This document shows, piece after piece, positions 30,445 to 52,709 of a DNA stretch of 64,000 nt. The notes under the pieces are model-generated. The model worked only from the letters and a program-made list of their open reading frames with translations, was not told the origin of the DNA and made no database searches. The translations under genes and the position numbers were made by a program. The stretch lies in contig CAZYVU010000003.1 in the NCBI GenBank assembly GCA_964651435.1, positions 51,269 to 115,268 on the forward strand, given 5' to 3'. Each line of letters starts with the position of its first letter. Positions within the stretch are counted from its first letter, which is position 1. This DNA comes from an uncultured Pseudomonadota bacterium. Lineage in GTDB: Bacteria > Desulfobacterota > Syntrophorhabdia > Syntrophorhabdales > CAYQXL01.

Positions 30445-31689
30445 ATGAGCAAGATACTGATTATTGACGACGAAAGAGACATTCTGGATAGCCTGTCGTC
30501 GGTCCTGGAGGACGAAGGCTTTACGGTGGTGAAGGCGGCTAACGGTGTCGAGGGCCTGTCCGTGTTTGCGAGGGAGCAGCCCGACCTGGTGCTCCTCGAC
30601 GTGTGGATGCCTGAGATGGACGGCCTGGAGGTGTTGAGCCTCATCAAGAAAGAGGCCGGTCATGCGGTGGTCATTGTCATTTCCGGCCACGGAACCATCT
30701 CCACCGCTGTAGAGGCCGTCAAGATGGGCGCCTATGACTTTCTGGAGAAACCATTGCACGTCGACAAGGTGCTCGAGGTGATCAACCGCGGGCTCGCAAG
30801 GGACGTGCGGTCCCCGGAGCCCGTCGATGACTTCAAGATTGAGGCGGCAGGCGGTCCCCAGCTTTTCCGGCAGCGAACGATCCGGAAGAGCACCGTCGTG
30901 TATGGTATGGGACTCCACTCGGGGACGAAGACGGGCATGATACTGCTTCCCATGCCCGAGAATACGGGGATTGTCTTCGAACACGTGCCCGACGGGGAGC
31001 GCATCCCGGCCTACGTGGATTATGTGTACTCTGTGGGATACGCCTCATCTGTGAAAGGCAAGAACTGTGTAGTGAGGACGATCGAGCATCTTCTGGCGGC
31101 ACTCCACATGTACGGTATCACGAACCTTCTTGTGAAGGTTAGCGAAGAGGTGCCCATCTTTGACGGGTCGGCCGCTGAGATGTGCGGAAAGATCGAGGAG
31201 GCCGGCCTGACGGACCAGTCCTCAGGCATAGAGCCGGTAAGGATCGACCGCACAGTGGCGCTTCCCGGCCTTTCCGACGGACGCCATCTGTCCATCGAGC
31301 CCTGCGACAGGTTCGAGGTCGACTATACGCTCGATCACGCCAAGCCGATCGGCTTCCAGAACTACCACTTTCGGGGTGATGCCGCGGATTTTGTCCGCGA
31401 GATAGCACCTGCAAGGACCTTCGGCTTCATCAAGGACTTTGAGAGGCTTTCAAGCATGGGGCTCGCCTCGGGGGGGCGGATCAACAACGTCATTATCCTG
31501 AGCGACGAAGAGGTGGTCAATACGAAGCTCCGGTTTGCCGATGAGTTTGTGCGGCACAAGATCCTTGACGTGGTAGGCGATTTCTATCTGCTCAACAGGC
31601 CTGTGCTGGGCAAGGTTGTGGCCAGGCAGACAGGTCACCTCGAAAACATCGGGCTGATTCGGGAGCTGAAGCGGCTCTACCTCAACTGA
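30445..31689 (+). CDS. lpxC: Response-regulator receiver fused to UDP-3-O-acyl-GlcNAc deacetylase LpxC
   Basis: REC: IDDE, VLLDVWMP, SGHG, DFLEKP; LpxC: QRTI..GMGLHSG, TIEHLLAAL, PIFDGSA, APARTFGF, RHKILD, TGH. Confidence 0.92.
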   Translation: MSKILIIDDERDILDSLSSVLEDEGFTVVKAANGVEGLSVFAREQPDLVLLDVWMPEMDGLEVLSLIKKEAGHAVVIVISGHGTISTAVEAVKMGAYDFLEKPLHVDKVLEVINRGLARDVRSPEPVDDFKIEAAGGPQLFRQRTIRKSTVVYGMGLHSGTKTGMILLPMPENTGIVFEHVPDGERIPAYVDYVYSVGYASSVKGKNCVVRTIEHLLAALHMYGITNLLVKVSEEVPIFDGSAAEMCGKIEEAGLTDQSSGIEPVRIDRTVALPGLSDGRHLSIEPCDRFEVDYTLDHAKPIGFQNYHFRGDAADFVREIAPARTFGFIKDFERLSSMGLASGGRINNVIILSDEEVVNTKLRFADEFVRHKILDVVGDFYLLNRPVLGKVVARQTGHLENIGLIRELKRLYLN

Positions 31690-32183
31690 AACAGGTCGAC
31701 GACGAAGGCGGCTATCTTTTCAACGTCGTCCCTTTTGAACGTCGGTAGGGGCAGCTCGACGGGTTCATCGGTAACGATGGCCACGATGCCGGTGCGGCTT
31801 AACGCAAGGGGTTTGTCGCTTCCCTTTGCGGCGTAGACTTCAATCTTGGGTACGTCGGCGTCCTTACACCCCTCAATAAGGCAGATGTGGGCATTGACGG
31901 CGAATCTTGACACGATCTCACGCAGGTCCGGCTTGCCGGGGATGTCGGCCGTAAGGGCGATCTTGTGCGGCAGCAGCAGCATGGTGGCCACCGCCCCCGC
32001 TTTCCGGTGGCGATGGGAATCCTTGCCCGGCTTATCGATCCGCAAATCATGAGGGTGATGCTTTGCCGTGGCAACCCGGAGGCCTTTTGCCTTCAGTGCT
32101 CCGATGAGCCTCTCGACGAGGGTCGTTTTTCCCGTCTTCGAGTGGCCAATGATTCCAAGAACGGGTAAGCCGGCGTCCTGCAT
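31677..32183 (-). CDS. mobB: Molybdopterin-guanine dinucleotide biosynthesis protein B
   Basis: GHSKTGKTT, KHHPH, DKPGKDSHRH, LIEG.K..PKIEV. Confidence 0.88.
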   Translation of the reverse strand: MQDAGLPVLGIIGHSKTGKTTLVERLIGALKAKGLRVATAKHHPHDLRIDKPGKDSHRHRKAGAVATMLLLPHKIALTADIPGKPDLREIVSRFAVNAHICLIEGCKDADVPKIEVYAAKGSDKPLALSRTGIVAIVTDEPVELPLPTFKRDDVEKIAAFVVDLFQLR

Positions 32184-32186
32184 GGG

Positions 32187-32738
32187 CTATGCGTTGTAAA
32201 GGTTGAGGAAATGGAAAGCCACCAGAACGAGGGCATGGCTGATGGTGCCGTTTCTGATGAGAGACGGGATCTCATCGACGGGCACAAGCACCACATCAAT
32301 ATCCTCGTCGGGATCCAGGTTGGAGTCGGCAACCTTTACGGCGTTGTGAACGAGGTAGGTGTGGCAGAGGTTCGTGAAGATTGCAGGGTTGGGGTTCGTT
32401 GTCCCCAGGTGAAGAACCCTTTCCCCGGAAAAGCCTGTTTCTTCCAAAAGCTCCCGCAGGGCCGCTTCTTCCGAGCTTGCTTCCTCCACGATGCCCCCCG
32501 GTATTTCCAGGGTGACATCCTTGGACCCATGGCGGAACTGCCTGACCATAACCACCTTCCCGTCGTCGGTAAGGGGTATGATGTTGACCCAATCGTTGGC
32601 CTCGATGACGTAAAATGTCTCGACCCTGCTCGTCCTGGGCGAACGGGCCTTCTTCGTCCGTATCTGAAAAACGCCGTAATCCTTATCTACCCTGGAGTCG
32701 AGAAGTTCCCACTCTTTGATCATGGTTAAGGGTACCAT
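32187..32738 (-). CDS. NUDIX hydrolase (ADP-ribose pyrophosphatase-like)
   Basis: VRQFRHG, EIPGG..EEAALRELLEETG Nudix box. Confidence 0.9.
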   Translation of the reverse strand: MVPLTMIKEWELLDSRVDKDYGVFQIRTKKARSPRTSRVETFYVIEANDWVNIIPLTDDGKVVMVRQFRHGSKDVTLEIPGGIVEEASSEEAALRELLEETGFSGERVLHLGTTNPNPAIFTNLCHTYLVHNAVKVADSNLDPDEDIDVVLVPVDEIPSLIRNGTISHALVLVAFHFLNLYNA

Positions 32739-32791: not shown

Positions 32792-34126
32792 CTATTTTGT
32801 AAAAAGGCCTTCGTAAGCCGCCACACCTGCCTCATAGCCCCTTTGGTTCTTTGCCCAATCTTGATGGCAGCCGTTGCAGGAGTTGGCCAGTGCGGAGCCG
32901 GGGTCTTTCTTAAATAGCGCGAGGCTTTCCGACGGCTTAATGATCCTGAAGTCGTGCGAATGGATATCCCCTGCTTCGGCGGACGAGGCTGTCCTTACCA
33001 TGTGGCAGCCTGAGCACTTTCCCGTACCCCTTGTCTCGGGCGCATAGTTATGCTTTGTGTGGGCACGGATTGCCGCGGGGCTCGCAAACCTCTTGTCTTT
33101 GCCGTGGCAGGACAGACAGAGGTTGTTGTTGTGATCGGCCCTGACGAGCTGGTTCTCCCCGGGCCCGCCATGGGCTGCATGGCAGTCCCAGCAGGCGACC
33201 TTTGCCGCGTAGTGTTTGCTTTTCAGGAGGTCATTCCACTGTTGGTGATGTTGCCGTGAATGTGCCTGCGGATCTCCCCAGACCCCCGGTTTAAATCGGT
33301 AGAAATCGGCCAGGTTGTCTCCCGGCTTGAAGGGCTTGTTTTCTTTATCATTCCAGGGAAACTCGAAGGTTCCGGCGGGAACGCTTACCCCCCGGTTGTG
33401 ACACTGACCGCAGACTTCGATTGCCCGTTCATATGCGATCTTCCTGGGATTCACAATCTTCCCCTTCGACTTGGGCGCTTTCACGTGCTCCGAACCGGGA
33501 CCGTGGCAGCGTTCACAACCCGTATTCAGCTCCACGTAAACCGATTCATAACCACCGTTAATCTTCTTAAGCTGTAAGCCCGTGTTGTGGCACCCCGCGC
33601 AGCTCATTTCAAAGGACTTGTTGGCGGCGATGGTCTTCAGGCTTCCATCGTCGTTGTACCAGTTCTGCAGATTGTAGGGTACCCAGCGGGACGTCGCCTG
33701 GTTCCACTGGATGGGGAGGATAAAGTGATTGTTTCCTATCCTTGCCTGGTACCGCTGCTTCCACCCCCACCCTCCGTAAGTCCGCACAATATCGTAGGTC
33801 ATTTCTTTGGACGGGTCTCTTGCATCAACAAGTGTGGCACGATAGGCGCCGCCGGGACCTTTCGACAGCTTGACCATCACCTCAGGGATGCTGCCGGCCT
33901 TGAGCTTCACCGTTCCCCCCCAATCGACCACAACGGTGTCGTTGGTAGGGCTTAAGACCTGCTGGGACTTGTTGTGCAGCGTATCCCTCCAATTATCGTG
34001 GATTGCCTTGTGACATTTCACGCACTGCTCGGAACCGACGACCGTCTGGGCGAGCGCAGCAACCGGCAGAAGCATCGCTGTTATACAGCAGAGGACGATT
34101 TTTGGAATAGCCACCCTTGCAGGCAT
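32792..34126 (-). CDS. Periplasmic octaheme c-type cytochrome
   Basis: Signal peptide; eight CxxCH: CVKCH, CAGCH, CERCH, CGQCH, CWDCH, CLSCH, CSGCH, CNGCH. Confidence 0.9.
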   Translation of the reverse strand: MPARVAIPKIVLCCITAMLLPVAALAQTVVGSEQCVKCHKAIHDNWRDTLHNKSQQVLSPTNDTVVVDWGGTVKLKAGSIPEVMVKLSKGPGGAYRATLVDARDPSKEMTYDIVRTYGGWGWKQRYQARIGNNHFILPIQWNQATSRWVPYNLQNWYNDDGSLKTIAANKSFEMSCAGCHNTGLQLKKINGGYESVYVELNTGCERCHGPGSEHVKAPKSKGKIVNPRKIAYERAIEVCGQCHNRGVSVPAGTFEFPWNDKENKPFKPGDNLADFYRFKPGVWGDPQAHSRQHHQQWNDLLKSKHYAAKVACWDCHAAHGGPGENQLVRADHNNNLCLSCHGKDKRFASPAAIRAHTKHNYAPETRGTGKCSGCHMVRTASSAEAGDIHSHDFRIIKPSESLALFKKDPGSALANSCNGCHQDWAKNQRGYEAGVAAYEGLFTK

Positions 34127-34173
34127 CGTAATACCTCCCCGTTATGTCGTAAGTCCGGGTGCCTTATCAGCCG

Positions 34174-34467
34174 CTACTTTCTCTTCTGTTTCATTGGAGC
34201 GCCACAGCAGATGAGGTCGCATGTCTCAACGCAACCGCATGCCGTGTCGACGCTTACAACGATACCGCAGACTTCGCAGGCGAGTCTGGCCCCTTCCTTC
34301 AACTGCTTGCTTTTCGCTCCCGCTGCCTTGGCAGGCGCCTTCTTTGGGGCTGTCGCCTTCGCCGCCTTGGGCTCGGCCGCCTTCTTTGTTGCCGGCTTCG
34401 CAGATGTTGCCTTCTTTGCAGCCGGCTTCGCAGGTGCCGGTTTTGTTGCAGCAGTCTTCGTTGCCAT
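34174..34467 (-). CDS. Lys/Ala/Pro-rich (histone H1-like) protein with C-terminal Cys-rich desulforedoxin-like domain
   Basis: PAK/AKK repeats, then CEVCG...CGC...C...CCGAPM; AGGGGG RBS; strong upstream promoter. Confidence 0.8.
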   Translation of the reverse strand: MATKTAATKPAPAKPAAKKATSAKPATKKAAEPKAAKATAPKKAPAKAAGAKSKQLKEGARLACEVCGIVVSVDTACGCVETCDLICCGAPMKQKRK

Positions 34468-34509
34468 CAATGAACCCCCTTATTAGAGTATTTTTGAGCG
34501 GTTGTTTCT

Positions 34510-34537
34510 ATTCTATGAAAATAGGCTAATCTGTCAA
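34510..34537 (-). promoter_or_regulatory. Sigma70 promoter upstream of the H1-like gene
   Basis: Minus strand TTGACA (34537-34532)-N16-TAGAAT (34515-34510). Confidence 0.65.
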
Positions 34538-51194: not shown

Positions 51195-52709
51195 CTATGC
51201 AGCGCTGTATTGCTCCCTAAGAATCTTCTTCTGTATCTTTCCCACGGGATCCTTGGGTAGGCCCTCTGCAAAGGCGACAGTCTTCGGCAGTTTGTACCGG
51301 GCCAGCCTTTCCGCACAGAATTGTATGAGCTCCTTCTCCGTAGCCTGCTGCCCCTTCTTGAGAACAACAATTGCCTTGACCTGCTCCCCCCACTTCTCGT
51401 CGGGAACACCGATGGCGGCACATTCCTGAACGGCCGGATGGAGGTGGAGCACGTCCTCGATCTCGTGCGGGGAGATGTTTTCGCCGCCGCTGATAATGAG
51501 GTCCTTTTTCCGGTCCACAACGTAGATATAGCCGTCCTCGTCCACAGTGGCCATGTCGCCCGTGTGGAGCCATCCCCCGTCGAAGGTCTTTGCCGTTTCC
51601 TCGGGGCGTTTCCAGTAGCCCTTCATTACGTTAGGTCCGCGGGCAATGATCTCGCCCATCTGGCCGGGCTTTACATCGTTGCCGTCACCATCCACAACCC
51701 TTACGTGGCAGCTGAAGAGCTCCTTTCCGACCGATGCAAGCCGCTTGAGCCCAACCCCGGCAAGGGCCACATCCTCCTTGGGCAGATAGGTGAGGAGGGG
51801 GGATGCCTCCGTAAGGCCGTAAACGACGAAGACAACGTCGGGGCCCAGGAGCTTCACGGCCCGCTGCAGGATCGGCAGTGGCGTTGTTTGGCCGCCAACC
51901 GAATAGCTCTTCAGGGACCCTATACTGTACTTGCCTTCCTCGAAGGCGTCGAGCACCATGACGAGGCCCGTGTAGACGAGGGTCATGTGGGTGATGCCGT
52001 CTCTCTCGACGGATTTCCAGAACTCGTGACCGTCGAAGTTGTTCATGATCACGTTCGTTCCACCGACGTAGAACTGGCAGAGGACCATATTCTTTTGCAT
52101 GGTGTGGTAAAAGGGTTGCACATGCAGACAGACATCGGAGGGACCCAGTCTGTAGGCGATGGTATTGTTTATGACCCCGGCCAGGAAGTTGTCGTGGGTC
52201 AGGACGACCCCCTTGGGGCCCCCCGTGGTGCCGCTTGTATAGAAGATTGAAAAGATGTCCTCCTGCCTAACGGCAACAGGCGGCTCATCGGCAGTGCCCG
52301 TCGCCAAAAAGGGCTCGTACTCCCCGTCCATCTGTATGATATGGGCTACGGAGATGTCGTTGTGGATCGTCTCAACCTCCTTCTTGAACGCATCGCCCAC
52401 AAAGAGGATGTCGATTTCGGCGTCATTGATGACGAACTGGAGCTCCACGGGGACAAGCCGGAAATTGAGCGGCACGTAAACCATCCCTGTTTTAGCTGCT
52501 GCAAAGCATATCTCCACCATCTCCGGGCTGTTCTTGCTCAGGACGGCAACCTTGCTGCCCGGTTCGAGTCCCAGGCGAAGAATGGCGTCAGCCAGCTTGT
52601 TGACTCGTTGATTGAATTCGTAGAACGTAAGTGACCGGCCTTCGTATACAAAGGCCTTTTTGCTTGGATAACGACGGGCGCATTGCACCGCCAAGTCGCC
52701 GATTACCAT
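51195..52709 (-). CDS. AMP-forming acyl-CoA synthetase (long-chain fatty acid/aryl-CoA ligase family)
   Basis: YTSGTTGGPKG, YGLTE, GWLHTGD, DLIISGGENI, GKIQK. Confidence 0.92.
   Translation of the reverse strand: MVIGDLAVQCARRYPSKKAFVYEGRSLTFYEFNQRVNKLADAILRLGLEPGSKVAVLSKNSPEMVEICFAAAKTGMVYVPLNFRLVPVELQFVINDAEIDILFVGDAFKKEVETIHNDISVAHIIQMDGEYEPFLATGTADEPPVAVRQEDIFSIFYTSGTTGGPKGVVLTHDNFLAGVINNTIAYRLGPSDVCLHVQPFYHTMQKNMVLCQFYVGGTNVIMNNFDGHEFWKSVERDGITHMTLVYTGLVMVLDAFEEGKYSIGSLKSYSVGGQTTPLPILQRAVKLLGPDVVFVVYGLTEASPLLTYLPKEDVALAGVGLKRLASVGKELFSCHVRVVDGDGNDVKPGQMGEIIARGPNVMKGYWKRPEETAKTFDGGWLHTGDMATVDEDGYIYVVDRKKDLIISGGENISPHEIEDVLHLHPAVQECAAIGVPDEKWGEQVKAIVVLKKGQQATEKELIQFCAERLARYKLPKTVAFAEGLPKDPVGKIQKKILREQYSAA

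Follow-up and report, generated by a model that had tools for sequence, protein, structure and literature searches.

The small protein analyzed in this study is encoded on the minus strand of a window of 64,000 nucleotides (the whole stretch of DNA under study; positions 51,269 to 115,268 of contig CAZYVU010000003.1, assembly GCA_964651435.1) from an uncultured bacterium of the Syntrophorhabdales (Desulfobacterota), and is understood as a divergent desulforedoxin equipped with a putative second metal site and a long polycationic tail. As proposed here, it would be a small cytoplasmic metalloprotein whose C-terminal 35-40 residues, of desulforedoxin fold, follow an N-terminal disordered polycation. 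The combined interpretation, in which an iron/redox protein takes part in the oxygen-defence network of anaerobes and is anchored to a polyanion through its tail, is one that we rate as having about an even chance of being correct.

The 97-aa product, MATKTAATKPAPAKPAAKKATSAKPATKKAAEPKAAKATAPKKAPAKAAGAKSKQLKEGA followed by RLACEVCGIVVSVDTACGCVETCDLICCGAPMKQKRK, ends in RLAC64EVC67GIVVSVD74TAC77GC79VETC83D84LIC87C88GAPMKQKRK and contains exactly seven cysteines (C64, C67, C77, C79, C83, C87, C88), arranged in the C-terminal domain as C64xxC67-x9-C77xC79-x3-C83-x3-C87C88GxPM. Thresholds of the curated models are not reached by the 97-aa protein, neither that of PF06397 (Desulfoferrod_N; 14.8 bits, cut-off 23) nor that of TIGR00319 (10.6, cut-off 36), and a single-sequence search of the PDB returns desulforedoxin at E 0.32. 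At the level of the family, PF06397 is the best-matching Pfam family, below threshold, for 87 of 107 members, and a precomputed match to it exists in just 2 of 120 relatives. A profile of the 80 locus-derived sequences, compared by hhalign with eight canonical desulforedoxin domains, gives a probability of 97.5% (E 6e-12); searched against the PDB, the same profile finds desulforedoxin 1cfw at E 6e-4 and no other fold at significance. The AlphaFold2 model of the domain, built on the 80-sequence alignment, has a pLDDT of 87.6, and Foldseek places only desulforedoxin and desulfoferrodoxin N-domains at ranks 1-6 (1dxg, 1dfx, 2ji2, 2ji1, 2ji2_B, 1vzg), the predicted model matching 1dxg_A best with a TM score of 0.87, an rmsd of 1.4 Å and 40% identity. 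The four desulforedoxin cysteines and the glycine are invariant in all 136 family sequences, which were collected by the CxxC...CC pattern. Two other small iron-protein families gave no match in the 97-aa protein: rubredoxin (PF00301), the second knuckle being CC and not CPxC, and, in the Pfam scan, Bfd (PF04324), from which cysteine order and spacing differ. Because the hhalign comparison, the PDB profile match and the predicted fold agree, with a 4-residue insert present in all alignments, the C-terminal domain is, as judged from profiles and model, a divergent desulforedoxin beyond the reach of curated models. The initial annotation, made from the sequence alone, had pointed to a seven-cysteine C-terminal motif and a desulforedoxin-type site; the motif is read from C64 to C88 in the open reading frame (ORF), and the site assignment gains from the profile and fold comparisons.

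By homology and predicted fold, Cys64, Cys67, Cys87 and Cys88 form a distorted tetrahedral centre of the Fe(Cys)4 type, with Fe as the presumed metal. Like desulforedoxin, the domain probably functions in dimeric form, and the natural occurrence of tandem two-domain relatives supports this view. In these proteins (P0062, P0092, P0134, P0139), two family domains of differing spacer length stand behind a Lys/Glu-rich N-terminal region, and they may represent a covalent version of the dimer.

The spacer between CxxC and CC comprises 19 residues compared to 15 in desulforedoxin. All alignments put the 4-residue insert, C-G-C-V, at the Gly-rich loop of desulforedoxin, and each of the three extra cysteines is either part of this insert or close beside it. 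Conservation was evaluated in 101 representatives having the 19-residue spacer. The third and fourth cysteine positions (C3, C4) are conserved to 91% and 90%, while the fifth (C5) is occupied by Cys in 55% of the sequences and by His in 31%; Asp74 is retained in 88% (and in 80/80 of the locus-derived sequences), and 79% have an acidic residue immediately following C5. A Cys or His ligand at C5 is found in 85 of the 89 sequences in which C3 and C4 are both present, compared to 0/7 of those in which both are absent (Fisher P=3e-8), and the nature of the C5 ligand is coupled to the acidic residue, Cys occurring with Asp and His with Glu (46/6 vs 3/16, P=2e-8); these counts ignore phylogeny, and the sequences lacking the triad seem to belong to no more than two or three clades. 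Since the exchange of Cys and His together with joint loss constitutes a signature of metal ligands, we infer from the sequence patterns that the insert and Cys83 add one second metal site, formed from Cys77, Cys79 and Cys83 and probably completed by Asp74, Asp84 or a partner subunit. The suggestion in the initial annotation that the three extra cysteines could form a second site is strengthened by the joint loss, the alternation of Cys and His and the pairing of Cys with Asp and His with Glu.

Preceding the domain is a tail of 58-60 residues, noted at the outset as PAK/AKK low-complexity sequence and borne out by a count of 22 Ala, 16 Lys, 7 Pro and 6 Thr in the first 60 residues, with a net charge of +14. 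The pI is 10.6 for the tail and 9.8 for the whole protein, and the domain has a charge of -2. AlphaFold2 runs on full-length sequences return pLDDT values of 43-54 without secondary structure for residues 1-55. The tandem repeat within the tail-coding part of the gene (Table 1) suggests that the tail grows by repeat expansion. Basic tails, differing in length, characterize the family as a whole: the net charge of the tail is at least +5 in 115 of 136 representatives, and the pooled family tails consist of 26% Lys and 18.5% Ala next to an acidic core domain (median charge -4). From the composition, we infer that the tail could serve as an electrostatic tether between the acidic metal domain and a polyanion, most likely DNA, else RNA, polyphosphate or acidic partner proteins.

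The 97-aa ORF is a real gene and no chance ORF. Its C-terminal domain occurs in 39/61 genomes of the same order (E<=1e-6). Compared to related loci, the non-synonymous divergence is 0.18-0.28, with synonymous sites near or at saturation, and the dN/dS ratio is 0.23-0.28 where computable. The start codon ATG at 34467 was chosen over TTG at 34470 because relatives begin with MATK. The near-consensus sigma-70 promoter that had been noticed upstream matches the consensus in 11/12 positions (TTGACA-16-TAGAAT) and is conserved: an alignment with other Syntrophorhabdales loci (L026, L030, L031, L054) shows the -35 and -10 elements to be kept together with the A-rich sequence AAAACTT(T/C)TC just upstream, and the GGGGG run of the Shine-Dalgarno sequence is likewise retained in the alignment of related loci. 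Promoter-like sites in the gene region number 3, compared to 0.3 expected from shuffles. At the other end of the gene, the basic C-terminus corresponds to a family consensus, PMKxKK.

Regarding the spread of the family, a word-indexed search with the C-terminal 46 aa gave a single protein, and an exhaustive phmmer search was used. The domain is carried by 182 cluster representatives (E<=1e-3); P0003 (3181 aa) and P0048 (860 aa) were rejected as members, both being repeat-protein matches. In genomes, with one genome per species scanned, relatives were found at 206 places, a lower bound that is biased to the CGCV(D/E)xCD subtype, the query being a 15-sequence alignment. The taxon and neighbourhood analyses rest on the best 80 of these 206 loci. 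The family is present in at least ten phyla of strict anaerobes, all of them represented by metagenome bins. The bacterial groups comprise Syntrophorhabdales and other Desulfobacterota, Thermodesulfovibrionales/Nitrospirota, Omnitrophota, Dehalococcoidia, Elusimicrobia/Endomicrobiia, Goldbacteria, WOR-3, Sumerlaeota, Planctomycetia and Clostridia, and the archaea are ANME-1 and Methanoperedens; among the named sources, no cultured host was found. The family is uncurated and its members are called 'hypothetical' at source. JGI misnomers ('rubrerythrin', 'TatB', 'TonB') are attached to P0169, P0196, P0221, P0270 and P0271, due to the cysteine knuckle or the low-complexity tail. A literature search for desulforedoxin-like or lysine-rich desulforedoxin proteins returned nothing on the family.

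A biological role is suggested by the gene neighbours across the family. The commonest neighbour encodes a di-iron protein of the ferritin superfamily, Bfr-like, DpsA-like or erythrin-like, positioned within 500 bp on the same strand in 15/80 loci and within 6 kb in 19/80. These neighbours retain all six di-iron ligands without exception, and they match the Pfam families Ferritin (10/16) and Rubrerythrin (14/16). The di-iron gene is located upstream in some loci and downstream in others, with the adjacency kept. PF00210 genes number 1.6 per genome on average, and about 0.04 adjacencies would be expected in 40 genomes, compared to six seen; adjacency was here counted from the clustered neighbour ORFs, and the PF00210 matches served as the per-genome background alone. 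The same clusters contain genes for flavodiiron protein, superoxide reductase, a TrxR-like flavoprotein, rubrerythrin, a PNPOx-like protein and an FNR-like reductase. A classical rubredoxin is part of the clusters in 11 loci, six of which have it immediately 5' of the family gene, and a canonical 40-aa desulforedoxin is present in two loci. These clusters are an oxygen/peroxide-defence and iron-storage island of anaerobes. Family members residing in such islands are 51-61 aa long (median 53) compared to a median of 82 aa for the others (P=4e-9, with phylogeny ignored), and short-tailed members stand directly beside di-iron genes in at least six other phyla. Bfr of sulfate reducers is oxygen-induced and PerR-controlled (PMC13713477). 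Centres of the desulforedoxin type are redox-active near 0 mV, and the desulforubrerythrin of Campylobacter has such a centre fused to a di-iron rubrerythrin (PMC7482061).

Compact same-strand clusters of this kind are seen in Omnitrophota and Elusimicrobia (L039, L040, L061, L068, L090, L094, L096, L097, L100), often with 2-oxoacid:ferredoxin oxidoreductase genes upstream. The gene order at L039:4082-8180 is flavodiiron protein, erythrin- or Dps-like di-iron protein, rubredoxin, family gene, superoxide reductase with a rubredoxin-like N-domain, PNPOx-like protein and TrxR-like reductase.

The proposed mechanism places the protein in the oxygen/peroxide-defence and iron-handling network of an anaerobe, because short-tailed members in at least six other phyla adjoin such genes. 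The metal domain would act as a one-electron carrier, or as an iron-handling partner, of rubrerythrin, ferritin-like or Dps-like proteins and flavodiiron protein, the transfer of electrons or iron to di-iron partners being what the gene context leads us to expect. The conserved neighbours in other phyla, namely genes of di-iron ferritin-like proteins, of oxygen defence and of rubredoxin, point to an iron/redox function, not to a purely architectural protein. In the window member, which is long-tailed, stand-alone and furnished with a strong promoter, the tether would have been enlarged, with the effect that the iron domain becomes concentrated on the nucleoid or another polyanion.

Several points weigh against this interpretation. 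The genomic context is drawn from short-tailed members (median 53 vs 82 aa), and its transfer to the long-tailed ones is an extrapolation. The window gene is located outside any oxygen-defence cluster, its neighbours encoding a periplasmic multihaem cytochrome, a NUDIX hydrolase and MobB. A ferritin of the Bfr/Dps type was not found in the organism's own genome (98% complete), the only PF00210 match there being a rubrerythrin on another contig, and Bfr as the partner in this genome is therefore rejected. A simple replacement of rubredoxin is rejected as well: the genome has rubredoxins, and in Omnitrophota a rubredoxin gene adjoins the family gene. Furthermore, Cys4 sites of the desulforedoxin kind are also able to hold structural zinc. 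The genome encodes two flavodiiron proteins and several rubredoxins. Its oxygen-defence genes include a desulfoferrodoxin-rubrerythrin operon (C21:18200-19050, minus strand), a flavodiiron protein followed by a rubrerythrin (C2:90094-91900, plus strand) and a further rubrerythrin (C54:11400-11900, plus strand).

Alternatively, the tail could define the function. The protein would then be nucleoid-associated and histone-H1-like, the tail coating or bridging DNA and the domain serving as a metal-stabilized (Zn or Fe) dimerization clasp, possibly oxidation-sensitive, that operates without an electron-transfer partner. This explanation, close to that offered in the initial annotation, is considered possible but rather doubtful. 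The H1-like composition of the tail, highly charged and predicted to be disordered, is consistent with it, and no other cytoplasmic polycationic AKP-rich ORF occurs in the genome. The conserved strong promoter and ribosome-binding site also fit, as does the precomputed HC2 match (PF07382) on the tails of 12/120 relatives. In Syntrophorhabdales, the gene stands alone and its neighbours vary between subclades. Desulforedoxin itself is homodimeric, and the tandem-domain relatives point the same way. However, the window protein gives no match to histone-like Pfam models (PF07382, linker histone) at E<=10, and four HU/IHF genes already exist in the genome, for which reason the protein is rejected as the genome's only nucleoid protein. 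A pure clasp does not explain the co-varying Cys2-Cys/His site, and the presence of short-tailed members inside oxygen-defence/ferritin clusters across phyla would be left without explanation. The nucleoid part of the original suggestion is plausible on the grounds of tail composition. There exist parallels to Hc1/Hc2 of Chlamydia, AlgP of Pseudomonas, the C-terminal tail of mycobacterial HupB and the Lys-rich N-terminal tail of Dps from E. coli, all of which share polycationic low complexity, predicted disorder and repeat-driven variation in length. The likeness is in composition only, and the tail here is N-terminal to a metal domain, not to a DNA-binding fold.

On a further reading, which we consider unlikely, the long-tailed members would make up an unrecognized class of chromatin proteins, gated by iron or redox state, in strict anaerobes. 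A dimeric two-metal core, with an Fe(Cys)4 centre and a Cys2-Cys/His site in each chain, would be held on DNA via the histone-like tails, and oxidation of the core or its loss of iron would alter dimerization and hence DNA bridging. Alternatively, the core would feed electrons to di-iron proteins at the nucleoid, or capture iron for them, and so limit Fenton damage.

A small basic zinc-ribbon-like protein that uses structural zinc and binds RNA, the ribosome or polyphosphate, as a general polyanion chaperone, is judged quite improbable. Small size, high basicity and a Cys-rich knuckle fold are indeed found in several ribosomal zinc-ribbon proteins, and weak PDB profile matches to ribosomal L37Ae and zinc fingers were obtained. 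Those matches, however, cover the first CxxC knuckle only (10-14 residues, E>0.09), while the CC-G-x-P-M half, the predicted fold and the profile comparison all point specifically to desulforedoxin; moreover, ribosomal or translation genes are not among the conserved neighbours in the 80 loci.

Least probable is an operon-specific accessory function for the downstream octahaem cytochrome, such as that of a cytoplasmic iron/redox helper in its production, since the pair, recurring at L026 and L030 and with a 47-nt gap that makes co-transcription likely, is limited to the three closest loci, other Syntrophorhabdales having NUDIX or unrelated genes downstream, the small protein lacks a signal peptide whereas the cytochrome is exported, and the family-wide context is unrelated to cytochromes.

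Compared to known systems, the protein shares with the desulforedoxin of Desulfovibrio gigas (Dx; 1DXG, 1CFW; PF06397) the CxxCG...CCGxPM pattern, the predicted fold, profile homology and the likely dimeric use. It differs by the 19-residue spacer, the C-G-C-V insert in place of the Gly loop, the second site of extra Cys/His and Asp/Glu residues, the 58-60-aa polycationic tail, the basic C-terminus, the pI of 9.8 and scores below the Pfam and TIGRFAM thresholds. The centre-I N-domain of desulfoferrodoxin (2Fe superoxide reductase; 1DFX, 2JI1) is the same small domain and works together with an oxygen-defence iron enzyme, and the desulforubrerythrin of Campylobacter, a Dx domain fused to a di-iron four-helix bundle, embodies the same pairing as the gene neighbours in other phyla. 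In contrast to both, the domain described here is free-standing, has the extra site and the tail, and is not encoded beside such an enzyme in its own genome. The placement of short-tailed family genes directly beside Bfr-, Dps- or erythrin-like genes recalls Bfd ([2Fe-2S], PF04324). Rubredoxin-2 of Desulfovibrio desulfuricans is another small iron protein encoded beside bfr. Because short-tailed genes adjoin ferritin-like genes as Bfd and rubredoxin-2 adjoin bfr, a role in electron donation or iron release is, by analogy, plausible for the short-tailed members. Sequence relation to Bfd or rubredoxin is absent, though, the window genome is without a Bfr/Dps-type ferritin, and several of the operons also hold a rubredoxin.

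Our study has importance in delineating a widespread unnamed relative of desulforedoxin that combines a second conserved site with a polycationic tail and occurs among uncultured anaerobes of at least ten phyla. Desulforedoxin ranks among the classic model iron centres; for its free-standing form, no physiological role is, to our knowledge, settled. If the protein indeed served as a redox/iron partner of di-iron proteins, or as a nucleoid-bound iron protein, it would constitute a missing small component of oxygen and iron handling in anaerobes, and a new two-site rubredoxin-type scaffold for bioinorganic chemistry.

Table 1. Features of the gene and of its locus in the window (positions as numbered in the window)
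Feature	Position	Strand	Basis
Coding sequence, 97 aa + TAG stop	34174-34467	-	ORF read, purifying selection
Sigma-70-type promoter: -35 TTGACA 34537-34532, 16-nt spacer, -10 TAGAAT 34515-34510	34510-34537	-	
Shine-Dalgarno AAGGGGG, 7 nt 5' of ATG	34475-34481	-	Sequence read
Disordered Ala/Lys/Pro/Thr tail, residues 1-58	34294-34467	-	Composition, AlphaFold2
30-nt (10-codon) tandem repeat, 2.8 copies, within tail-coding part	34376-34460		
Desulforedoxin-like domain, residues 61-93; Cys64, Cys67, Cys87, Cys88 as predicted Dx-type Cys4 site	34189-34287	-	
Insert and putative second-site residues Asp74, Cys77-Gly-Cys79, Cys83-Asp84	34216-34248	-	
Short basic C-terminal end KQKRK	34177-34191	-	
Multihaem (octahaem) c-type cytochrome gene, 444 aa	32792-34126	-	Pfam cytochrome c3/c7/c554 families
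NUDIX hydrolase gene	32187-32738	-	
MobB gene	31677-32183	-	

At the locus itself, the cytochrome gene has its own ribosome-binding site (GGGGAGG), and the minus strand shows no terminator-like site between it and the family gene, with which it is probably co-transcribed. In the 80 loci, the pairing recurs only at the two closest ones, and the cytochrome is outside the protein's conserved family context. A NUDIX hydrolase gene lies 3' of the family gene at L033, at L036 and in the window, followed by MobB in the window and at L036; the window and the two most closely related loci seem to have gained the multihaem cytochrome gene by insertion between the family gene and the NUDIX gene. In one Syntrophorhabdus subclade (L038, L041, L046, L057, L060, L063, L066, L089), genes for an anti-sigma-like protein and an ECF-type sigma factor are always found 1.6-3.5 kb downstream on the opposite strand, an association that probably reflects shared ancestry rather than functional linkage. 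Lastly, two antisense ORFs on the plus strand, 33974-34486 (170 aa) and 34159-34473 (104 aa), span the tail-coding repeat and were rejected as genes, being artefacts of the repeat composition. Gene callers could take the wrong strand at this repeat, and the Phe/Ala/Gly-rich antisense translations recur in related loci, where they cluster like a spurious family (neighbour clusters 1 and 4).

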